A DNA stretch of 64,000 nucleotides, taken from assembly GCA_965242525.1 (NCBI GenBank), contig OZ251459.1, positions 3,040,001-3,104,000 on the forward strand, in the 5' to 3' direction. Made by a program: the position numbers and the translations under genes. The first letter of the stretch is position 1; each line of letters opens with the position of its first letter. The DNA comes from an uncultured Candidatus Binatia bacterium (GTDB lineage: Bacteria > Desulfobacterota > Binatia > UBA9968 > JAJDTQ01). This document shows positions 30,295-48,169 of the stretch, piece after piece. The notes under the pieces are model-generated. The model was not told the origin of the DNA. It ran no database searches and worked only from the letters and a program-made list of their open reading frames with translations.

Positions 30295-30516
30295 TCACGG
30301 AACCGGGTCATACCCTCCGTCGTGGAACGGGTGGCAGCGCAGGATCCTCGACGCCCCCAGCAGGATTCCCCTGGCCGCGCCGTGGCGCTCCACCGCCTGC
30401 AGCGCATAGGCGGAGCAGGTGGGGAAGAACCGGCAGGAACGAGGCAACAGCGGCGAGAGGAAGCATTGGTAGCCCCTGATGCAGGTCCTCACGACGATGC
30501 GGGCGAGGGCGCTCAT
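30295..30516 (-). CDS. yidD: Membrane protein insertion efficiency factor YidD
   Basis: [27 protein letters not shown]. Confidence 0.95.
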
Positions 30517-30520
30517 GGGG

Positions 30521-30877
30521 TCACCGGGGCTTCGGGTCCGGCCCGGTCGCCTTGCGGAGCTCCGCGGCCATGGCGGCGTAACTCAACTCTCCCGCTCCCC
30601 TTCGCGCGATGACCACCGTGTCCTGGTCGGGGCGGAACCTCTCCCGCCCGCGGCGAAAGAACTCGCGCACCCTGCGCTTCACGCGGTTGCGGACCACCGC
30701 CTTCCCCACCTTGGCGCTGACCGTGATCCCCAGCCGCTTGCCCAGCCGGTCGTTGTCTCTACGGATGATGACGAAGTGCGGCGTGTAGGACTTCCTGCCC
30801 CTGCGGGACAGGAGCAGGAACTCGGAACGTCTGGTCAGGCGGGCTTCCTTGGGGAAACTCTCGCGGACACAGGACAA
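30521..30877 (-). CDS. rnpA: Ribonuclease P protein component
   Basis: [25 protein letters not shown]. Confidence 0.95.
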
Positions 30878-30886
30878 CGGCTCGTC

Positions 30887-31048
30887 CTAGGAACGAGGTC
30901 CCTTCGGCGGGATGACGACGGTCAGCCGCTTCCTTCCCTTGGCCCTCCGGCGCTTGAGCACGTTGCGTCCGCCGGGGGTCTCCATTCGCGCAAAGAAGCC
31001 GTGGGTCCTCTTCCGCTTCAGGTTGCTCGGTTGATACGTCCGCTTCAT
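30887..31048 (-). CDS. rpmH: 50S ribosomal protein L34
   Basis: [42 protein letters not shown]. Confidence 0.97.
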
Positions 31049-31186
31049 TTGCGACCCCCGTCCTTCCGTACATCCTTCAGGGTTCCCTTTCAAGCATACG
31101 GGCAAGGGCTTGTCAATTCGCGGTGCGCCCCGGCGCCGCCCCCTCCCGCCCGCGCCCGAACCCGACCCCTGGACCCGGACCGCCCC

Positions 31187-31215
31187 TTGACCCTCCCCGC
31201 CCCTCCTGCCATGCT
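31187..31215 (+). promoter_or_regulatory. Putative sigma70 promoter divergent from rpmH
   Basis: TTGACC-17 bp-CATGCT with TG extension, pointing at the methyltransferase gene. Confidence 0.35.
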
Positions 31216-31374
31216 CCCCCGTGACCCAGGCCGGGCCACGGTTGCCCCCGATGCGGGGACCCCGGAGCCAACCGGACCGCTCCCGCGAGGACCCTGCGAG
31301 GACATGGCGGCCGATCAGGCAGCCAACCCTTCCCCGGGGAGAAGAAAATCGAGCCGGATGAAACGGGACAGTTC

Positions 31375-32442
31375 ATGAGCAAGCTCGGGAATACTGCACG
31401 AACGCCCCTGTTCCCGGAATCGCGGGGGCGCCCGAGATACCCTGATATTGGAGACAGGTTCGTCCGCGGCCAGGCGGAAATCCATTTCGACCGAGCCGAG
31501 AACCTGTATGCGTCGTGGCAAAGACCCACCTGCATCATTTCCGACGGACCCTACGGCATCAGCGGATACCCCGGCGACAACCACAAGGCCGAAACCCTCG
31601 CCGACTGGTACGAGCCCCACATCAAGTTGTGGAGCGAGTACTCGTCACCCGAAACAACCCTCTGGTTCTGGAACACCGAAGCAGGCTGGGCAACCGTACA
31701 CCCCGTGCTGTTGGCAAATGGTTGGGAGTATCGCTGCTGCAACATCTGGGACAAGGGGTTGGGGCACGTCGCGGGCAACGCGAATACGCAGACGCTGCGC
31801 AAGTTCCCGGTCGTCACCGAGGTCTGCGCCCATTACGTCAAGGCGGCAACGTTTCAGGCGGACGGCAAGTCACTGACCATGCAGGAATGGCTTCGTCATG
31901 AGTGGAAACGGACCGGATTGCCGTTTCGCTTCGCCAACGAAGCGTGCGGCGTACTCAACGCCGCGACCCGAAAATATCTCACCGCAGACCATCTCTGGTA
32001 TTATCCGCCCGTGGAGGCTTTCGAGAGGCTGTCGCAATACGCGAACGAACGCGGCGCTCCGGAGGGGCGACCCTATTTCAGCATGGACGGACAGGCCCCC
32101 CTGTCCGGTTCCCGGTGGGCGCGGCTACGGGCAAAGTTCACCTGCGACGTAGGGGTAACGAATGTGTGGCGCGAACCGCAACTCAGCGGCTCGGAACGAA
32201 TCCAGGGAACGAGGAACGGCATGAAGTACAAGTTCAGCAGCCTGCACGGCAGCCAGAAGCCGTTGAAGTTCATGGAACTCATCATCCGTGCGACGACGGA
32301 TGAAGGCGACGTCGTGTGGGAGCCCTTCGGCGGATTGTGCCCGGGAGCAGTGGTTTCCCATCGTCTCGGACGTCGATACCACGCCGCGGAGATTATCCCC
32401 GAATTCTACGCCGCAGCAGTAGAAAGGCTGGCCTCGTCATGA
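31375..32442 (+). CDS. Site-specific DNA methyltransferase (N4-C/N6-A, beta-type motif order)
   Basis: Motif IV variant ISDGPYG near the N-terminus, NIWDKG, HGSQKP, motif I variant VWEPFGG near the C-terminus. Confidence 0.85.
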   Translation: MSKLGNTARTPLFPESRGRPRYPDIGDRFVRGQAEIHFDRAENLYASWQRPTCIISDGPYGISGYPGDNHKAETLADWYEPHIKLWSEYSSPETTLWFWNTEAGWATVHPVLLANGWEYRCCNIWDKGLGHVAGNANTQTLRKFPVVTEVCAHYVKAATFQADGKSLTMQEWLRHEWKRTGLPFRFANEACGVLNAATRKYLTADHLWYYPPVEAFERLSQYANERGAPEGRPYFSMDGQAPLSGSRWARLRAKFTCDVGVTNVWREPQLSGSERIQGTRNGMKYKFSSLHGSQKPLKFMELIIRATTDEGDVVWEPFGGLCPGAVVSHRLGRRYHAAEIIPEFYAAAVERLASS

Positions 32443-32775
32443 ATGACGAGGTTGCTTCGTCCGGCCCGCGCCGGGAGCCGCTTTCCGCGGACGATGAGCA
32501 TTATCAACTTCGGACGATTGGCGCGTACCGGAATGATGGACTCGTATGTACAGAAGCTCAACGAGGTCCAACTATGCGGTATCAAGACGGACTATTGGCG
32601 GCAGTTCCTGAAAGCGTTCCAGGAGAGCACCACGGATGCGGAAGCTCGCGCCGCCCTCGAACGGCTGAATCGACGGGTGCATCAGACGACCGATGTCGCT
32701 TCCCCAAAGGCCCAATCTGCGTTGACGATCATAGACCAACTCGAACGCCTGCTCGATCTGCCGGAGGACCTTTGA
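32439..32775 (+). pseudogene. Probable internally deleted partner gene (restriction-endonuclease remnant)
   Basis: ATGA-coupled start reads MNDEVASSGPRREPLSADDEHYQL; protein-like sequence continues in another frame as NFGRLARTGMMDSY...YWRQFLKAF; junction near 32505-32513. Confidence 0.45.
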
Positions 32776-32788
32776 CCCGGTCCGCTAC

Positions 32789-33013
32789 AGGAAACCCTGA
32801 ACAATCGGGACAGGGGGAATAAGCGCGTCCTTCGACTCCGCTTCGCTACGCTCAGGACGAACGGAGACAGGAGGGTCAGGATGAGGGAATCCGTCCTGGA
32901 TGTCTCGATTGTTCAGAGGTTCCTTTCGTAAGAATGGATGGATTCCCGCTTTCGCGGGAATGACGGGGGCAGGCGTCTGCGGGAATGACGAGGCAGGCGC
33001 CTGCGGGAATGAC
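32789..33013. repeat. Composite MITE-like repeat plus tandem GCGGGAATGAC REP units
   Basis: AGGAAACCCTGAACAATCGGGA...TCTCGATTGTTCAGAGGTTCCT (32789-32924) enclosing the inverted REP hairpin, followed by three GCGGGAATGAC units. Confidence 0.75.
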
Positions 33014-39522: not shown

Positions 39523-40779
39523 TCATCCGTCGCAGACTTCCGGGCGTTGCTCGATGTATTCGAGCAGGGCCTCTGCGGCCCATTGATGGCCGGCGGGGCT
39601 CCAGTGGCCGTCGTGGGGCCAGTGGGCGTCCGTGAGCTTGGCGCCCTGGCGGAGGATGTAGTCGGCTTGGTCGATGACGGGAATGCCGAGAGTCGCGGCC
39701 ATTTCGCTCATTCGCTCGAACAGGGAAGTTCCGGGGTTCTTCAGCGTGTGTGTCGCCAGGATGACCAGCGCAGCGCCGTCCCGGTCGGCGCGCCGCTGGA
39801 ACTGCTCCAGCGCGAAGCGGGTGTATTGCAGGGCGTCCTCGTAAAAGGGAGGCAGGTCCCTTCGAGAGAAGCCTCGCTCCATGTCGGCCAAACTGGCGGG
39901 CCGCCATCCTTCGAACATCGCAGCATAGCCGGGGTGCTGCCTCAGAACCTCCTGTTTCCGGAAGAACCGGTGTCGTGTGTCACGAGGAGGAACCAACGCC
40001 TTCTTCAACGCGTTCTTCTTGGCGGACAACCAGAGGGCAAACCGTGAATGGGCCATCGCCTCCCTTCCGGCGAGGGCGGTCCCCGATGGCTGGGGCCAGA
40101 AACCCTCTGGGAGCTGGTCCTGGGGGTAGGCCCATGCCAGTTCCAACTCCCCGTCCGGGCGCTTTCTCACCATGGGCTCCCAGCCCCATCCCCAGCTCCC
40201 TGCTGCCCACTTCAGTGCCCTCAGAAGCCGCGTGTTGTTGCCGAAATCATTGTCGACGAAGACCAGCACGAGCAGTTTGGGACGGAAGCGTCGGGCATAT
40301 TCGTCGTAGAACGGCAGTTGCTGGACTTGGCCGGTATTTCCCACCCCGAAGGCCGAGGTCGTGACTTCCATTCGGGGCAACCGGGCAGCGGCGAGTTCTT
40401 CGAGGCGAACCTGGACCTTGCGGTGGATGGGGACCTCCATCGCCTCCACGAAGGAGTCGCCGATGACGGAGACGTGGCAGGTTGCTGCGGCGCGTTCGGG
40501 GCTCGGGGGCTCCCGGTCGAGGAAGCCCAAGCTGTTGGTGCGGGAGACGTTCCAGAAGTCGAGTTCGTTGGTATGGCGTATCTCCGTGTTCGGCGGTCTG
40601 AGATAGCCTACGTTCGGGACGAACACCAAGGGGCGGCTCGGTCCCATGAACGGCACGGTCAGACGAAGCCAGGCTTCTCCGGCCAACCCCACCAGCGCGG
40701 CGCCTGCGACCAACAGAAGCACGTTCCATCCGATGAGGCGCAGCGCACGACGGAACCCGGCCATTGACGAAGATACCAC
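39523..40779 (-). CDS. SGNH/GDSL hydrolase-family protein with N-terminal membrane anchor (copy A)
   Basis: VIGDSFVEA, FVDNDF, HDGHW. Confidence 0.8.
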   Translation of the reverse strand: MVSSSMAGFRRALRLIGWNVLLLVAGAALVGLAGEAWLRLTVPFMGPSRPLVFVPNVGYLRPPNTEIRHTNELDFWNVSRTNSLGFLDREPPSPERAAATCHVSVIGDSFVEAMEVPIHRKVQVRLEELAAARLPRMEVTTSAFGVGNTGQVQQLPFYDEYARRFRPKLLVLVFVDNDFGNNTRLLRALKWAAGSWGWGWEPMVRKRPDGELELAWAYPQDQLPEGFWPQPSGTALAGREAMAHSRFALWLSAKKNALKKALVPPRDTRHRFFRKQEVLRQHPGYAAMFEGWRPASLADMERGFSRRDLPPFYEDALQYTRFALEQFQRRADRDGAALVILATHTLKNPGTSLFERMSEMAATLGIPVIDQADYILRQGAKLTDAHWPHDGHWSPAGHQWAAEALLEYIEQRPEVCDG

Positions 40780-40814
40780 GGCGTCCCGCCTGCCTCAAGC
40801 CGCGCCCGAGGCGG

Positions 40815-42068
40815 TCACCCGTCGCAGACTTCCGGGCGTTGCTCGATGTATTCGAGCAGGGCCTCTGCGGCCCATTGGTGGCCGGCGGGGTTCCAGTGGT
40901 AGTCGTGGGGCCATCGGGCGTCCGAGAGCCTGGCGCCCTGCCGGAGAATGTAGTCGGCCTGGTCGATGACGGGAATGCCGAGAGTTGCGGCCATTTCGCT
41001 CATTCGCTCGAATATGCGGGTTCCGGGGGTCTTCAGCGTGTGTGTCCCCAGGATGACCAGCGCGGCGCCGTCCCGGTCGGCGCGCTGCTGGAACTGCTCC
41101 AGCGCGAAGCGGGTGTATTGCAGGGCGTCCTCGAAAAAGGGAGGCAGGTCCCTTCGAGAGAGAGCCAGATTCACGTCGGTCCAAGTGGCAGGCTGCCATC
41201 CTTCGAACATCGCAGCATAGCCGGGCTGCCGCATCAGAGCCTCCCGTTTCCGGGAGAACCGGTGTCGTGCGCTGGAAGAAGGAGGAGGAGGAAGAAACGC
41301 GTTCTTCTTGACGGACAACCAGAGGGCAAACCATGAATGGGCCATCGCCCTCCTTCCGGCGAGGGCGGCCCCCGATGGTTGGGACCAGAAACCCTCTGGA
41401 AGCTGGTCCTGGGGGGAGGACCATGCCAGTTCCAACTCCCCGTCCGGGCGCTTTCCCACCATGGGCTCCCAAGGACGTTTTCGGCTCCCTGGCAATGAAC
41501 CCAACGATCTCAGAAGCGGCGCGTTGTTGAAGAAATCATTGCCAACGAAGACCAGCACGAGCAGTTTGGGATGCAGCCGCCGGGCATATTGGTCGTAGAA
41601 CGGCAGTTGCTGGACTTGGCCGGTATTTTCCAACCCGAAGGCCGAAGTCGTGACGTCCAGGTGGGGCAAGCGGTTGGCGGCGAGTTCTTCGAGGCGAACC
41701 TGGAGCTTTCGATCGATGGGGACCGACAGCGCCTCCACGAAGGAGTCGCCGATGACGGAGACGTGGCAGGTTGCTGCGGCGCGTTCGGGGCTCGGGGGTT
41801 CCCGGTCGAGGAAGCCCAGGCTGTTGGTGCGGGAGACGGTCCAGTAGTCGTGTCCGTTGGTATGGCGTATCTCCGTGTTCGGCGGTCTGAGATAGCCTAC
41901 GTTCGGGACGAACTCCAGGGGTGGGCTCGATTTCAGGAACGGCACGGTCAGGCGAAGCCAGGCTTCTCCGGCCAACCCCACCAGCGCGACGCCTGCGACC
42001 AACAGAAGCACGTTCCATCCAATGAGGCGCAGCGCACGGCGGAACCCGGCCATCAACGAAGATACCAC
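40815..42068 (-). CDS. SGNH/GDSL hydrolase-family protein (copy B)
   Basis: VIGDSFVEA, FVGNDF, HDYHW. Confidence 0.8.
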   Translation of the reverse strand: MVSSLMAGFRRALRLIGWNVLLLVAGVALVGLAGEAWLRLTVPFLKSSPPLEFVPNVGYLRPPNTEIRHTNGHDYWTVSRTNSLGFLDREPPSPERAAATCHVSVIGDSFVEALSVPIDRKLQVRLEELAANRLPHLDVTTSAFGLENTGQVQQLPFYDQYARRLHPKLLVLVFVGNDFFNNAPLLRSLGSLPGSRKRPWEPMVGKRPDGELELAWSSPQDQLPEGFWSQPSGAALAGRRAMAHSWFALWLSVKKNAFLPPPPSSSARHRFSRKREALMRQPGYAAMFEGWQPATWTDVNLALSRRDLPPFFEDALQYTRFALEQFQQRADRDGAALVILGTHTLKTPGTRIFERMSEMAATLGIPVIDQADYILRQGARLSDARWPHDYHWNPAGHQWAAEALLEYIEQRPEVCDG

Positions 42069-42103
42069 GGCGTCCCGCCTGCATCAAGCCGTGTCCGGGG
42101 CGG

Positions 42104-43354
42104 TCACCCGTCGCAGACTTCCGGGCGTTGCTCGATATATTCGAGCAGGGCCTCTGCGGCCCATTGGTGGCCGGCGGGGTTCCAGTGGTAGTCGTGGGGC
42201 CACCAGGCGTCCGAGAGCTCGGCGCCCTGCCGGAGGATGTAGTCGGCCTGGCCGACGACGGGAATATCGAGGGCCGCGGCCATTTCGCTCATTCGCTCGA
42301 ATATGCGGGTTCCGGGGGTCCCCAGCGTGTGTGTCGCCAGGATGACCAGCGCGGCGCCGTCCCGGTCGGCGCGCTGCTGGAACTGCTCCAGCGCGAAGCG
42401 GGTGTATTGCAGGGCGTCCTCGTAAAAGGGAGGCAGATCCCTTCGAGAGAAGGCTCGCTCCATGTCGGCCCAACCGGCAGGCCGCCATCCTTCGAACATC
42501 GCAGCATAGCCGGGCTGCCGCATCAGAGCCTCCCGTTTCCGGGAGAACCGGTGTCGTGCGTTGGAAGAAGGAGGAGGAAACAACGCGTTCTTCTTGGCGG
42601 ACAACCAGAGGGCAAACCGTGAATGGGCCATGGCCTTCCTTCCGGCGAGGGCGGCCCCCGATGGTTGAGGCCAGAAACCCTCTGGGAGCTGGTCCTGGGG
42701 GTAGGCCCATGCCAGTTCCAACTCCCCGTCCGGGCGCTTTCTCACCGTGGGCTCCAAACCCCATCCTCGGCTCCATTCTGTCCACTGCAGTGCCCTCAGA
42801 AGCGGCGTGTTGTTGTCGAAATCATTGTCGACGAAGACCAGCACGAGCAGTTTGGGACGGAGCCGTCGGGCATATTCGTCGTAGAACGGCAGTTGCTGGA
42901 CTTGGCCGGTATTCCTCAACCCGAAGGCCGAGGTCGTGACGTCCAGGCGGGGCAACCGGCTGGCGGCGAGTTCTTCGAGGCGAACCTGGAGCTTTTGATC
43001 GATGGGGACCTCCATCGCCTCCACGAAGGAGTCGCCGATGACGGAGACGTGGCAGGTTGCTGCGGCGCGTTCGGGGCTCGGGGGTTCCCGGTCGAGGAAG
43101 CCCAGGCTGTTGGTGCGGGAGACGTTCCAGTAGTCGAGTCCGTTGGTATGGCGTATCTCCGTGTTCGGCGGTCTGAGATAGCCTACGTTCGGGACGAACT
43201 CCAGGGGTCGGCTCGATGCGATGAACGGCACGGTCAGTCGAAGCCGGGCTTCTCCGGCCAACCCCACCAGCGCGGCGCCCGCGACCATGATGAGCGCATT
43301 CCATCCGATGAGGCGCAGCGCGCGGCGGAACCCGGCCATTGACGAAGATACCAC
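42104..43354 (-). CDS. SGNH/GDSL hydrolase-family protein (copy C)
   Basis: VIGDSFVEA, FVDNDF, HDYHW. Confidence 0.8.
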   Translation of the reverse strand: MVSSSMAGFRRALRLIGWNALIMVAGAALVGLAGEARLRLTVPFIASSRPLEFVPNVGYLRPPNTEIRHTNGLDYWNVSRTNSLGFLDREPPSPERAAATCHVSVIGDSFVEAMEVPIDQKLQVRLEELAASRLPRLDVTTSAFGLRNTGQVQQLPFYDEYARRLRPKLLVLVFVDNDFDNNTPLLRALQWTEWSRGWGLEPTVRKRPDGELELAWAYPQDQLPEGFWPQPSGAALAGRKAMAHSRFALWLSAKKNALFPPPSSNARHRFSRKREALMRQPGYAAMFEGWRPAGWADMERAFSRRDLPPFYEDALQYTRFALEQFQQRADRDGAALVILATHTLGTPGTRIFERMSEMAAALDIPVVGQADYILRQGAELSDAWWPHDYHWNPAGHQWAAEALLEYIEQRPEVCDG

Positions 43355-43389
43355 GGCGTCCCGCCTGCCTCAAGCCGCGCCCGGGGCGG

Positions 43390-44646
43390 TCACCCGTCGC
43401 AGACTTCCGGGCGTTGCTCGATGTATTCGAGCAGGGCCTCTGCGGCCCATTGATGGCCGGCGGGGCTCCAGTGGCCGTCGTGGGGCCAGTGAGCGTCCGT
43501 GAGCCTGGCGCTCTGGCGGAGGATGTAGTCGGCCTGGTCGATGACGGGAATGCCGAGAGTCGCGGCCATTTCGCTCATTCGCTCGAACAGGGGAGTTCCG
43601 GGGTTCTTCAGCGTGTATGTCGCCAGGATGACCAGCGCGGCGCCGTCCCGGTCGGCGCGCTGCCGGAACTGCTCCAGCGCGAAGCGGGTGTATTGCAGGG
43701 CGTCCTCGTAAAAGGGAGGCAGGTCCCTTCGAGAGAAGCCTCGCTCCATGTCGGCCAAACTGGTGGGCCGCCATCCTTCGAACATCGCAGCATAGCCGGG
43801 GTGCTGCCTCAGAACCTCCCGTTTCCGGAAGAACCGGTGTCGTGTGTCACGAGGAGGAACCAACGCCTTCTTCAACGCGTTCTTCTTGGCGGACAACCAG
43901 AGGGCAAACCGTGAATGGGCCATCGCCTCCCTTCCGGCGAGGGCGGTCCCCGATGGTTGAGGCCAGAAACCCTCTGGAATCTGGTCCTCGAGGAAAGCCC
44001 ATGCCAGTTCCAACTCCCCGTCCGGGCGTTTTCTCACCATGGGCTCCAAACCCCATCCCCAGCTCCATTTTGCCCACTGCAGTGCCCTCAGAAGCGGCGT
44101 GTTGTTGCCGAAATCATTGTCGACGAAGACCAGCACGAGCAGTTTGGGACGGAAGCGTCGGGCATATTCGTCGTAGAACGGCAGTTGCTGGACTTGGCCG
44201 GTATTTCCCACCCCGAAGGCCGAAGTCGTGACCTCCGTTCGGGGCAACCGGGCAGCGGCGAGTTCTTCGAGGCGAACATGGAGCTTGCGGTGGATGGGGA
44301 CCTCTCGCGCCTCCACGAAGGAGTCACCGATGACGGCGACGTGGCAGGTTGCTGCGGCGCGTTCGGGGCTCGGGGGTTCCCGGTCGAGGAAGCCCAGGCT
44401 GTTGGTGCGGGAGACGGTCCAGAAGTCGAGTTCGTTGGTATGGCGTATCTCCGTGTTCGGCGGCCTGAGATGGCCTACGTTCGGGACGAACACCAAGGGT
44501 GGACTCGATTTCATGAACGGCACGGTCAGACGAAGCCAGGCTTCTCCGGCCAACCCCACCAGCGCAGCGCCCGCGACCATGATGAGCGCATTCCATCCGA
44601 TGAGGCGCAGCGCACGACGGAACCCGGCCATTGACGAAGATACCAC
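43390..44646 (-). CDS. SGNH/GDSL hydrolase-family protein (copy D)
   Basis: VIGDSFVEA, FVDNDF, HDGHW. Confidence 0.8.
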   Translation of the reverse strand: MVSSSMAGFRRALRLIGWNALIMVAGAALVGLAGEAWLRLTVPFMKSSPPLVFVPNVGHLRPPNTEIRHTNELDFWTVSRTNSLGFLDREPPSPERAAATCHVAVIGDSFVEAREVPIHRKLHVRLEELAAARLPRTEVTTSAFGVGNTGQVQQLPFYDEYARRFRPKLLVLVFVDNDFGNNTPLLRALQWAKWSWGWGLEPMVRKRPDGELELAWAFLEDQIPEGFWPQPSGTALAGREAMAHSRFALWLSAKKNALKKALVPPRDTRHRFFRKREVLRQHPGYAAMFEGWRPTSLADMERGFSRRDLPPFYEDALQYTRFALEQFRQRADRDGAALVILATYTLKNPGTPLFERMSEMAATLGIPVIDQADYILRQSARLTDAHWPHDGHWSPAGHQWAAEALLEYIEQRPEVCDG

Positions 44647-44681
44647 GGCGTCCCGCCTGCCTCAAGCCGCGCCCGGGGCGG

Positions 44682-46010
44682 TCATCCGTCGCAGACTTCC
44701 GGGCGTTGCTCGATGTATTCGAGCAGGGCCTCTGCGGCCCATTGGTGGCCGGCGGGGCTCCAGTGGCCGTCGTGGGGCCAGTGGGCGTCCGTGAGCTTGG
44801 CGCCCTGGCGGAGGATGTAGTCGGCCTGGTCGATGACGGGAATGCCGAGAGTCGCGGCCATTTCGCTCATTCGCTCGAACAGGGGAGTTCCGGGGGTCTT
44901 CAGCGTGTGTGTCGCCAGGATGACCAGCGCAGCGCCGTCCCGGTCGGCGCGCTGCCGGAACTGCTCCAGCGCGAAGCGGGTGTATTGCAAGGCGTCCTCG
45001 TAAAAGGGAGGCAGGTCCCTTCGAGAGAAGCCTCCCACCACGTCGCCCCAACTGGTAGGCCGCCATCCTTCGAACATCGCAACATAGCCGGCAGCATAGC
45101 CGGGCTGCCGCATCAAAGCCTCCCGTTTCCGGGAGAACCGATGTGGCGCGTTGGAAGGAGGAGGAGGAAACAACGCCTTCTTCTTGGCGGACAACCAGAG
45201 GGCAAACCACGAATGGGCCATCGTCTTCCTTCCGGCGAGGGCGGTCCCCGATGGTTGGGGCCAGAAACCCTCTGGAATCTGGTCCTTGGGGAAAGCCCAT
45301 GCCAGTTCCAACTCCCCGTCCGGGCGCTTTCTCACCATGGGCTCCCAAGGACCTTTTCGGCCCCCTGGCAATAAACCCAACGATCTCAGAAGCGGCGTGT
45401 TGTTGCGGAAATCATTGTCGACGAAGACCAGCACGAGCAGTTTGGGACGGAGCCGCCGGGCATATTGGTCGTAGAACGGCAGTTGCTGGACTTGGCCGGT
45501 ATTTCCCATCCCGAAGGCCGAAGTCGTGACTTCCATGCGGGGCAACCGGGCAGTGGCGAGTTCTTCGAGGCGAACATGGAGCTTGTCCTCGTTGGGGACG
45601 TCCGGCGCCTCCACGAAGGAGTCGCCGATGACGGCGACGTGGCAGGTTGCTGCGGCGCGTTCGGGGCTCGGGGGTTCACGGTCGAGGAAGCCCAGGCTGT
45701 TGGTGCGGGAGACGGTCCAGAAGTCGTGTCCGTTGGTATGGCGTACCTCCGTGTTCGGCGGTCTGAGATAGCCTGCGTTCGGGACGAACTCCAGGGGTTT
45801 GCTCGATTTCAGGAACGGCACGGTCAGGCGAAGCCAGGCTTCTCCGGCCAACCCCACCAGCGCGGCACCCGCGACCAACAGAAGCACGTTCCAGCCGATG
45901 AGGCGCAACGCACGGCGGAACCGGCTACCGGGGGGAGTTGCAAGTGTGCAGCCGCGGTCCGAAAGCGTCAGCGGCGCCGGTTCGTTCAGAGGTCCATCTT
46001 TGCTGACCAT
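44682..46010 (-). CDS. SGNH/GDSL hydrolase-family protein (copy E, first in operon, distinct N-terminus)
   Basis: Same motifs; start uncertain (ATG 46010 overlaps the upstream gene end). Confidence 0.75.
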   Translation of the reverse strand: MVSKDGPLNEPAPLTLSDRGCTLATPPGSRFRRALRLIGWNVLLLVAGAALVGLAGEAWLRLTVPFLKSSKPLEFVPNAGYLRPPNTEVRHTNGHDFWTVSRTNSLGFLDREPPSPERAAATCHVAVIGDSFVEAPDVPNEDKLHVRLEELATARLPRMEVTTSAFGMGNTGQVQQLPFYDQYARRLRPKLLVLVFVDNDFRNNTPLLRSLGLLPGGRKGPWEPMVRKRPDGELELAWAFPKDQIPEGFWPQPSGTALAGRKTMAHSWFALWLSAKKKALFPPPPSNAPHRFSRKREALMRQPGYAAGYVAMFEGWRPTSWGDVVGGFSRRDLPPFYEDALQYTRFALEQFRQRADRDGAALVILATHTLKTPGTPLFERMSEMAATLGIPVIDQADYILRQGAKLTDAHWPHDGHWSPAGHQWAAEALLEYIEQRPEVCDG

Positions 46011-48064
46011 TGGCGTCGGTATGGGGTTCTGTTCTGTCCCATCCTGATGCGGGAGACAGGATAACCGGGGAGTGGAACGACAGCGACGCACTTCCCTTCG
46101 AATAGCACGGAGTGCGCGACGAGCGGGATGAAGGGATTGTCCGAGCCGTACCGTTCGTATTGTCGGGGCAGGTCCTTCGGGTCTTCCGGAGTCACGTCCA
46201 CGAAGATCCCCTGTCCCGATTCCAGATCCTCCCGGACGCAGGGTTCCCTGACGAAGGTCAGGGTGTCATCACCGAGATAGACATCGAAGTAGGAGCGCGC
46301 CGCCGGGTCTCCGGCGGACACTGCCCTTTGGTAGGCGGCCCGGTACCACTCCAGGAAATCGGCGATACCCGACGAATCATGCAGGAACACCTGTTGGTTC
46401 CGGGGTGTGAGCAGGGCGTCGCTCTCCACGCGGTCGGGGGTGACGATGAAGTCCGCGGCGCGGGCAGCGGCTTCCATGTCGGAGAGGCGTACCAGGACGC
46501 TTCCGGCCAAGTGGAGCTTCCAACGGTTCAGCGGGGACCATTCCGGATTCATGGACTCGATGACCAGGACCGTCTTGCCCCGGGTGGTTTCGCGGATGGC
46601 TCCGAGTTCGGCCATGGCGGTCCGTTGGGTCTCGGCCGCATGGGCGTCGAGGCCCCATCGTTGATCCATCCGGAAGGCGGATGCCGCGAAGGCGAGCAGG
46701 GCCGCGGCGGCAAAGGCGGCTACCGGACGAGCCCCCCATCGCTCGCGGACGTACAGCAGGAGCAGCGAGTAGAACACCAGCGGGACGCCCACGTAGAACA
46801 ATGCCTCGTGGTTGTGGTGTGCGGAATTGTTGCGCATGGGCAGGGCCCAGAAGAACCCGGACAGAGCAAGGACAGCCAGCAGGAAGCGCTGCCGCCCTTC
46901 CAGCAGCGGCCCTGCAAGGCGAGCGAGGGCCGCTGCTGCTCCCACGGCCATGAGCAACGCCAGGATGGATGACGACAACAGCGGCCCGAGAGGCCCCGAG
47001 GGTAAAGGAGGGGGCCCCGGGTCCCAACGGAAAGACTGGAACCACCCTGCCGGACCGCTTGCCTGGTCGGTGAGCAGGAACGGAACGGAGGCCACGCTGA
47101 CGCGAAAGAACTGCTGGCGCAGGAAACGCCGCCACCACTCCACGGGGGCGAAGTCCCCCTCCAGTCCGGTGCGCATGAGCATGGACTGGAACGACGGCAG
47201 TTCGGTCACCGGCGTCTCGCCTCCGAAGGCGGCGTACTCGCTGGCAAAGTTGAAGCTCAGGACGGCCGCGCCGAACAGCAGCGCGGCCAAGCCCAGGGCG
47301 GTGTAGCGGCTGCGCAGCACTGCGGCTGCGACGAAACGCGCACAGGGCCGGAGCGCAGTTCCGTGCTTCCAGGCCCGGAAGGCTTCCCGGGCCAAGCCCA
47401 GGAGGATGAAGGGAAGCAGGAAGGCGTACACGTGCCAGCCCAGCAGCAGCGCAACGAAGGTCTTGGCCAGCAACTGCCGGAACCGTCCCTCCTGCACGAA
47501 CACCACCATGCCGTGGAAGGCCAGCATGACCGCGAACAGGTCCACGCTGGCCTCGGTGGTGACCGCGTCGCCGTAGAACAGCATGTAGTAGGAAGAGAAG
47601 GCCATGAGGGTGGCGGCCAGTGCGATCCAGGGGCGGGAGGTGATGCGCGCGAGGGAGTGGAAAGCGAGGACCGCGGCGGCGCTGAACAGGAGGAGCATGA
47701 GGATTCGTGCGGTGAGGATCTTTGCGGAGAGGTCGTTTCCGAAGGGGAGGATGGCGAGTTTGAGGAGTGCGTAACCGCCGACGGGAAAGCGGCTGTACAT
47801 GTCGTAGGTCGGGGAGCCGCTTGATCCCTGGTGCCGCGCCTGGAACAACCGGAAACCGTGGTCGGGGGACAGGTTCTCGGCGATGGCCAAGCTTTTCAGG
47901 GACGTGTGAGTATGGAAGCCGGGACGGTACAAGTATCCATTGTCCACGTTGCACAGGAACAACGTGGACAACGCGAGCAGCAGCAACAGCAGGGGAAGCG
48001 TTGGGGCCGGAAATCTGGGGAGGGGGGGGGGGGGGGGCTTGGCATGTTCCAAATTCGATCTCAT
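45986..48064 (-). CDS. Polytopic membrane protein, GT-C (PMT/ArnT-like) glycosyltransferase-like, with a C16 tract near the start
   Basis: 692 aa, many TM helices, YSRFPVGGY loop, soluble C-terminal domain; C16 encodes PPPPP after codon 9. Confidence 0.6.
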   Translation of the reverse strand: MRSNLEHAKPPPPPLPRFPAPTLPLLLLLLALSTLFLCNVDNGYLYRPGFHTHTSLKSLAIAENLSPDHGFRLFQARHQGSSGSPTYDMYSRFPVGGYALLKLAILPFGNDLSAKILTARILMLLLFSAAAVLAFHSLARITSRPWIALAATLMAFSSYYMLFYGDAVTTEASVDLFAVMLAFHGMVVFVQEGRFRQLLAKTFVALLLGWHVYAFLLPFILLGLAREAFRAWKHGTALRPCARFVAAAVLRSRYTALGLAALLFGAAVLSFNFASEYAAFGGETPVTELPSFQSMLMRTGLEGDFAPVEWWRRFLRQQFFRVSVASVPFLLTDQASGPAGWFQSFRWDPGPPPLPSGPLGPLLSSSILALLMAVGAAAALARLAGPLLEGRQRFLLAVLALSGFFWALPMRNNSAHHNHEALFYVGVPLVFYSLLLLYVRERWGARPVAAFAAAALLAFAASAFRMDQRWGLDAHAAETQRTAMAELGAIRETTRGKTVLVIESMNPEWSPLNRWKLHLAGSVLVRLSDMEAAARAADFIVTPDRVESDALLTPRNQQVFLHDSSGIADFLEWYRAAYQRAVSAGDPAARSYFDVYLGDDTLTFVREPCVREDLESGQGIFVDVTPEDPKDLPRQYERYGSDNPFIPLVAHSVLFEGKCVAVVPLPGYPVSRIRMGQNRTPYRRQWSAKMDL

Positions 48065-48169
48065 CTTCCTGCGAGATCATACAACCCGACAGACTGTTTG
48101 GCAAACTTGAGAATTGTCCATTTGCGGAGCGGACAGAGACAAGGAGAGGCAGGACGCCAGGGAACCCGT

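Follow-up and report, generated by a model that had tools for sequence, protein, structure and literature searches.

Five tandem SGNH genes

We examined a 64,000-nucleotide stretch of DNA from an uncultured Candidatus Binatia bacterium (contig OZ251459.1, positions 3,040,001 to 3,104,000 of the forward strand), referred to as the window herein. At window 39523-46010 it carries a tandem array of five minus-strand open reading frames (ORFs), all intact, that encode SGNH enzymes and are called copies A to E. The original prediction, made from the letters alone, had described five tandem paralogues with intact frames, and both the coordinates and the frames bear it out. The array has a repeat period of 1286-1292 bases, and its spacers derive from the conserved downstream sequence of the SGNH family. 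We found no inverted repeat bracketing the array, and TRF, at a period limit of 500, does not detect it. Residues are numbered from the Ala codon at window 40761.

39523..40779, minus strand: SGNH copy A, last in transcription order, with an in-frame ATG at 40764 and GTG at 40779
40815..42068, minus strand: SGNH copy B, ATG at 42053
42104..43354, minus strand: SGNH copy C, ATG at 43339
43390..44646, minus strand: SGNH copy D, ATG at 44631
44682..46010, minus strand: SGNH copy E, the first copy, with its own 5' end and an ATG at 46010
40780..40814, also 42069-42103, 43355-43389 and 44647-44681, minus strand: 35-nt spacers

Exchange of blocks between the copies

The scaffold had been described as near-identical, with variation confined to short blocks. 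This holds for the scaffold, but whole copies share only 79-93% identity in protein and 88-96% in DNA; similarly, variation is concentrated in the blocks but not confined to them, since 106 of 402 core columns are variable. The conflicting pattern of block sharing was found as claimed: WNVLLLV is present in A, B and E versus WNALIMV in C and D, RSLG.LPG in B and E versus RAL.W in A, C and D, KKALVPPRDT in A and D, and HDGHWS in A, D and E versus HDYHWN in B and C.

No single tree fits these patterns. Among 1224 gap-free columns, 214 are variable and 96 informative, the latter supporting the splits AD (32 sites), BE (20), BC (18), CD (10), DE (6), AC (5) and others (5), and the best single tree accounts for 52 of the 96. 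Adjacent sites carry the same split 49 times versus 19 by permutation (p = 5e-5), or 34 versus 14 with one site per codon, and in a PHI-type test neighbouring sites were more compatible than permuted ones (p = 2e-4). Triplet tests gave p < 0.05 in 23 of 30 cases, 16 of them beyond the Bonferroni threshold. When all 15 trees were compared by AU tests, none was acceptable for every segment: segment 3-30 allowed only trees with C+D and segment 251-310 only those with A+D, while segment 311-412 allowed none with C+D. The whole-gene tree was itself rejected for segments 3-30 (p = 0.008) and 311-412 (p = 0.0009). Synonymous sites matched the split of the nearest nonsynonymous site in 12 of 24 cases versus 3.7 expected (p = 2e-4), so the blocks moved as DNA, a result that argues against convergence. 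Clustering was not significant for the 16 synonymous sites in amino-acid-invariant codons taken by themselves (p = 0.31).

In proteins from other assemblies, these blocks are combined in new ways. For instance, P0005 resembles B at residues 36-75, C at 168-200 and E at 251-350, and returns to B at 372-412. Sequencing run X5, with 6 differences in 557 positions of gyrB, also contains exact blocks of A type and C type.

A dispersed family with genome-wide conversion

We compared the source genome, G000, with a sister species, G023, within a set of 28 family genomes. G000 holds 17 SGNH loci, of which 16 are intact and one is frameshifted in a run of 25 C, and many of its copies are scattered among unrelated genes. 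G023 holds 17 intact and three broken copies, including a six-copy array at a different place. Altogether, 33 of about 37 copies in the two genomes are intact with a complete triad. A family-profile search found no member in the other 26 of the 28 genomes; outside this set, a Vicinamibacterales genome has about eight family loci and a Latescibacterota genome two to three. An MFS gene lies close to gyrB in four of the five relatives checked, and so the 8.7 kb between these genes here is an insertion; G023 has another neighbour at the gyrB site. In a tree of the 33 intact copies, A-E form a clade (support 100/98) inside a clade of 14 of the 16 G000 copies (98/94). On our reading, a family that now has 17 members entered one sub-lineage of the genus, and the array is its most recent tandem expansion.

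Concerted evolution of tandem paralogues by interlocus conversion is familiar from the Staphylococcus aureus lpl cluster, among others. Here, besides the incompatible local trees, copies at the same locus in the two species (beside thiI and beside Sua5, the two clear pairs available) share 80% of bases versus 92-94% in their flanks, while within-genome paralogues have medians of 81-86%. The thiI and Sua5 copies are each just the sixth best of 17 for their counterparts. Since same-locus copies are less alike than paralogues within a genome, this is concerted evolution among dispersed copies, with conversion acting across the genome. Two looser pairs near C1:3.21 Mb (78-79%), with an intervening gene, were not relied on. 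Within the G023 array, copy 2 is a chimera divided cleanly between copies 3 and 4: its 5' part is 95-100% like copy 3 and its 3' part shares 652 identical bases with copy 4. Conversion between array-type and dispersed copies is directly visible in metagenome protein P0274, whose ends match the dispersed paralogue C1:1157911 at 87-96% and whose middle, at 39-56%, is of array type. Lastly, two G023 copies at sites empty in G000 (L039:6217-7813 and L033:8607-10121) carry about 90 bases from the 5' end of thiI, with junctions at short stretches of common sequence, which shows that new copies arise by duplication of a neighboring segment.

Taken together, these results support the segmental conversion or unequal crossing-over that had been predicted and extend it to dispersed copies; we consider conversion in this family very probable. 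Unequal crossing-over alters copy number, and short conversion tracts carry blocks among tandem and dispersed copies, homogenizing the scaffold within each genome.

Fold, catalytic residues, and variable loops

Copy A has one N-terminal membrane helix followed by the block I Ser (Ser103), block III Asn (Asn171) and block V Asp/His pair (Asp384-x-His386) of SGNH/GDSL enzymes. All 119 homologues have S103, N171 and H386, and at least 90% keep D384, with DxH spacing. C95 and C410 are also invariant in the 119, and from this we infer a C95-C410 disulfide and hence a periplasmic location. In the model (pLDDT 90.5), the N-terminal helix shows basic residues and then a hydrophobic stretch, after which comes an SGNH fold. 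The top fold-search rows are of SGNH/GDSL type, with Z of 12.5-19.4 over 50 rows; most of these neighbors are esterases, and the best match is CgnD (PDB 8a2n; Z 19.4, rmsd 3.6, 242 residues aligned). AlgX and AlgJ are not among the listed matches, an absence that excludes nothing. Sequence profiles gave less: B alone among A-E passes the Pfam cut-off for Lipase_GDSL_2, matches to Pfam ALGX from the DxH region are weak and below cut-off, and NCBIfam yielded weak matches only (NF047475 in 32 of 119 members, best E 1.8e-6). A family-profile search of solved-structure sequences returned one match at E 0.35 and nothing meaningful, and we found no mention of LA_2490 in the literature.

In the SGNH topology, loops after the core strands line the active site. 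The variable positions follow core strands or motifs (108-113, 140-142, 170, 174, 182-197, 337-343 and 377-385). Around block II, which in SGNH enzymes supplies the Gly of the oxyanion hole, G139 and G144 are conserved and 140-142 vary, even among A-E. Residues 174 and 385, selected in both species as described below, adjoin catalytic motifs. The variable and selected positions would accordingly lie in active-site loops.

Selection on the copies

The per-site analysis of nonsynonymous and synonymous change (dN/dS) that had been proposed gave a codon-model signal for the family as a whole, and in the array by itself the excess of nonsynonymous change was not significant. Comparison of models M2a and M1a gave a 2dL of 209 for 16 copies of G000 and 310 for 17 copies of G023, with omega of 4.2 and 5.1, respectively, on 11-12% of sites. 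Positively selected sites above 0.95 numbered 27 and 29, of which 14 are common to both species. With 259 indel-free codons, 2dL was 86 and 157, and sites 66, 174, 377 and 385 were found in both. By comparison, 16 neutral simulations with heavy mosaicism gave 2dL of 0-33. We also measured the ratio of nonsynonymous to synonymous polymorphism (pN/pS), defining variable columns in one copy set and measuring them in another to avoid circularity. At the 81 most variable columns of G023, which include 48 of the array's 106 variable columns, the 11 dispersed G000 copies gave 1.24 (1.06-1.46), compared with 0.47-0.49 elsewhere.

Several results weigh against diversifying selection. Whole-gene dN/dS among A-E is 0.44-0.88. 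At the same 81 columns, the array gave a pN/pS of 1.34 with a 95% interval of 0.93-2.04, and at alternatively defined hypervariable columns 1.04 (0.71-1.63); reversing the column definitions gave 1.17 and 1.04, both with intervals including 1. Because the array-only intervals include 1, they are compatible with relaxed constraint. Additionally, we implemented the codon models ourselves and held relative branch lengths fixed, the nominal threshold is passed by null simulations as well, and, given the shared history of the two species, the overlap of sites is not fully independent. We therefore regard diversifying selection as supported for the SGNH family and not proven for A-E alone. Across the family, selection appears to favor amino-acid change in the active-site loops while the catalytic residues stay fixed.

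Glycan context and a co-expanded GT-C-like family

Directly upstream of the array lies a gene for a 692-residue membrane protein that has no Pfam match and whose features resemble GT-C glycosyltransferase clusters.

45986..48064, minus strand: GT-C-like membrane protein, 692 aa
46560-46290, minus strand: unnamed domain of about 110 residues with two cysteines that ends the GT-C-like protein; no Pfam match
48022..48037, minus strand: run of 16 C near the 5' end of the GT-C-like gene, a candidate slippage switch
48076..48104, minus strand: sigma-70-like consensus match (10 of 12) upstream of six same-strand genes; weak, as two such sites were found versus 1.0 expected
C1:4021090-4030899 of G000: glycan cluster with three GT2-like genes (by motif), a methyltransferase, SxtJ, DUF5989 and GT4

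The GT-C-like family has about 29 paralogues in G000, eleven of them in tandem at C1:938519-962075, adjoining an SGNH paralogue at 966613, and it occurs in the same 2 of 28 family genomes as the SGNH family. The unnamed domain, a candidate carbohydrate-binding module, is also found in one to several copies after SGNH domains (P0121, P0125, P0161 and P0165), and in P0125 an SGNH relative is fused to the GT-C-like C-terminal domain (38% over 107 residues, E 1e-18). At metagenome loci of distant relatives (15 of 26 covered, with 75 of 124 ORFs scanned), carbamoyltransferase neighbors occurred at five loci and O-antigen ligase-like, GT4, sugar epimerase and amidotransferase neighbors at two each; no MBOAT protein was among these ORFs. 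The neighbors of relatives and the C-terminal domain shared with the GT-C-like family favor the surface-glycan role that had been proposed, and we consider an envelope-glycan role likely. The SGNH enzymes would be exposed to the periplasm and would modify glycans of the cell surface, probably the products of the co-expanded GT-C glycosyltransferases.

As a separate observation, 5 of 25 C/G runs of at least 12 bases on C1 fall in SGNH or GT-C genes, which make up ∼2% of the genome (window 48022-48037 and G000 C1:1393718, 2843862, 2845688 and 2293189). Two of the runs lie at frameshifts, and similar runs are present in G023 copies. Either phase variation or long-read homopolymer error is possible.

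A candidate carbamoyl relay

In both G000 and G023, the genome contains a carbamoyltransferase, SxtJ and DUF5989, with the last two in a glycosyltransferase cluster. The carbamoyltransferase is full-length in these same two of 28 genomes and partial in G002; SxtJ was found in G000, G023 and G002 and in none of the others. DUF5989 is single-copy in five of five genomes tested that bear the SGNH family, and at 5 of 26 metagenome loci it is a neighbor of distant relatives. Among loci longer than 10 kb, four of nine contain both DUF5989 and a carbamoyltransferase, and in L062, which carries a 40%-identical relative, SGNH, SxtJ, DUF5989 and carbamoyltransferase genes are contiguous.

DUF5989 is a membrane microprotein with a C-terminal hexapeptide like FXYXXF, the motif described at the C terminus of DltX and in the tyrosine shuttle of PatA (PMC12148441). 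The C terminus reads [MFL]IYTxF in 58 of 58 aligned rows, with F in 21, M in 36 and L in one at the first position (MIYTIF in G000). Among 60,443 stop-terminated frames, DUF5989 alone has such a shuttle-like end. A complex prediction for copy A with DUF5989 gave a score of 0.02 (mark 0.32) and was counted neither way.

In the weaker part of the scheme that we propose, a single cytoplasmic SxtI-type carbamoyltransferase would, together with SxtJ, load the Tyr in the MIYTIF tail of DUF5989. The tail would then hand the group to the Ser of whichever SGNH copy fits the acceptor, in the way that DltX serves DltD, so that one donor would serve many shuffled, acceptor-specific enzymes. A number of points count against this scheme. 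In G000, the array is distant from both the carbamoyltransferase (C1:1.765 Mb) and SxtJ/DUF5989 (C1:4.029 Mb), and where a paralogue stands beside the carbamoyltransferase, G023 has an MFS-like gene, so the adjacency may be secondary. G002, alone among the other 26 genomes, has SxtJ, DUF5989 and the partial carbamoyltransferase but no SGNH member, amidotransferases stand beside relatives at L046, L069 and L071, and no clear ribosome-binding (Shine-Dalgarno) site precedes the ATGs of A-D. A cytoplasmic donor enzyme reaching a tail of DUF5989 that probably faces outward poses a topology problem. SxtL is published as a proposed decarbamoylase (PMC2679770) and CgnD as a slow protease, a hydrolase (PMC10070186).

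On balance, we put the probability that A-E and their relatives are recombining periplasmic transferases supplied by one carbamoyl donor at roughly 0.5, with the relay itself falling slightly short of an even chance on our analysis. The SGNH repertoire has co-expanded with the glycosyltransferase family and is probably tied to a single carbamoyl donor. A bolder version, which is speculative and on the doubtful side, would have about 29 GT-C and 17 SGNH genes shuffled by conversion and partly switched by poly-C runs into a system of combinatorial glycan diversification, with one carbamoyltransferase acting through a DUF5989 shuttle as a third acyl route beside MBOAT and AT3. In the literature, of which few subscription papers were covered, we found no description of this SGNH family or of DUF5989 as a shuttle.

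Alternative explanations

The enzymes could instead work in the periplasm as esterases or carbamate hydrolases, taking groups off glycans of the cell itself or of the host, with the loops setting the substrate. We judge this rather unlikely, although the canonical S-G-N-H order, the prevalence of esterases among structural neighbors, the hydrolase CgnD and the proposed decarbamoylation by SxtL (PMC2679770) would fit it, as would the failure to find an acyl-CoA donor family in the MBOAT and AT3 searches. The membrane anchor and the single-copy, tyrosine-tailed microprotein in five of five genomes tested argue otherwise. So does the variable block II position, often not Gly, which has been linked to transferases (PMC12148441), the structural equivalence of this residue not being fixed.

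Near-neutral birth and death, in which copies multiply and convert while the loops drift under relaxed constraint with no selected role, is unlikely. It would account for pairwise dN/dS below 1, the array-only block test that includes 1, the broken copies (1 of 17 in G000, 3 of about 20 in G023) and the scatter of many copies among unrelated genes. Against it, even the largest of the 16 neutral mosaic simulations falls short of the codon-model signal by a factor of 2.6 to 9, this signal recurs at the same sites in two species, including 174 and 385 beside catalytic motifs, and 33 of about 37 copies keep an intact frame and full triad.

The proposed acyl transfer did not hold up in the sense of O-acetyl transfer by MBOAT or AT3 donors, since neither family was found and a carbamoyl relay fits better. 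MBOAT (PF03062) was not found in G000, the one genome searched (the control was positive in 3 of 14 genomes), nor AT3 (PF01757) in five of five genomes searched (control positive in 10 of 14), and neither domain was found in 25 long homologues. PatB/AlgJ-type O-acetyltransferases fed by such a protein are thus very improbable: the weak ALGX matches from the DxH region and the membrane anchor speak for them, and against them stand these searches in a genome that is 98.96% complete and the fact that DUF5989 is the sole frame of 60,443 with a shuttle-like end.

That mixed-strain alleles were placed end to end in assembly is hardly credible: although no contig from four sequencing runs (contigs only were examined) spans the whole array, the array sits within a 4.15-Mb contig of a genome with 1.84% contamination, the longest identical tract between its copies is just 136 nt, a 191-nt contig from a second study (X4) crosses the A/B junction with two differences, P0007 and P0277 from other assemblies begin with the start of an internal copy, and G023, a single-contig genome, has its own six-copy array.

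Relation to known systems

Judging by its size and position, DUF5989 is presumably SxtK. On this footing, one of the known sets closest to ours is the SxtI-J-K-L module (PMC2684587, PMC2679770), which likewise comprises a carbamoyltransferase, SxtJ, a 49-residue DUF5989 protein and a GDSL/SGNH protein. The full set is present in G000 and G023, but there it is split over the chromosome and not gathered in a single cluster as in L062, SxtJ and DUF5989 lie among glycosyltransferases, and the SGNH gene is amplified to 17-20 recombining copies. The likeness is one of composition; those papers propose that SxtL hydrolyzes, and they give SxtJ and SxtK no mechanism. DltB-DltX-DltD and PatA-PatB (PMC12148441) have in common with our system a microprotein with a Tyr and terminal Phe hexapeptide and a membrane-anchored Ser SGNH partner. 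Our system differs in that no MBOAT was found, with a soluble carbamoyltransferase as candidate donor instead, that the motif starts with Met in 36 of 58 rows, and that the SGNH partner is multi-copy and diversifying. CgnD shares its fold and a carbamoyltransferase in its cluster (PMC10070186), but it is 15% identical and is described as an intracellular leader-peptide protease with DxxH (Asp325/His328), not DxH.

As in concerted-evolution families such as the S. aureus lpl cluster, we see mosaic copies, lineage differences in copy number and species-specific clades; here, however, the products are enzymes whose catalytic core stays fixed, and conversion extends to copies at distances of megabases. 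Cassette-based antigenic variation is exemplified by Borrelia vlsE, Neisseria pilE/pilS and Anaplasma msp2. Like these, the array shows segmental conversion of variable blocks between conserved stretches. It differs in having five whole genes with no truncated silent donors and no single expression site (16 of 17 G000 copies are whole frames with the full triad), and enzyme specificity would vary instead of an exposed protein. The antigenic or phage-receptor variation that had been suggested remains plausible.

Gene conversion between paralogues is ordinary. What is unusual is that it acts on a large family of envelope enzymes with intact catalytic sites, and that in 2 of 28 related genomes this SGNH family has expanded together with a second one. 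If the transferase reading is right, the cell surface would be varied by recombining enzyme specificity loops, and SxtJ and SxtK/DUF5989 would gain a testable role. Copies A-E are five natural chimeras that differ in few loops, a panel for mapping the acceptor specificity of SGNH transferases.

Other observations

Binatia genomes have been reported from sponges (PMC9531527); the habitat of G000 is an inferred one. Sequencing runs labelled as sponge metagenomes (X6-X10) contain small shares of the sequence and do not demonstrate this habitat, and X1 may be the source sample. No RNA run was listed among the runs containing the sequence, and summed contig depths were not taken for copy numbers. 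At window 30479-32822, a DNA methyltransferase (N6_N4_Mtase) and a small ORF lie between rpmH and gpsA on the strand opposite to their neighbors, and dnaA does not adjoin rpmH in this window. REP-like repeats occur near 5 of 11 family loci and not near the array; they number in the hundreds genome-wide, with two classes of about 620-660 and 227 matches on C1 of G000, and nothing was concluded from them. The G000 contigs C3-C6 (8-10 kb) are 93-99% alike over kilobases, which suggests that they are variants of one small element.

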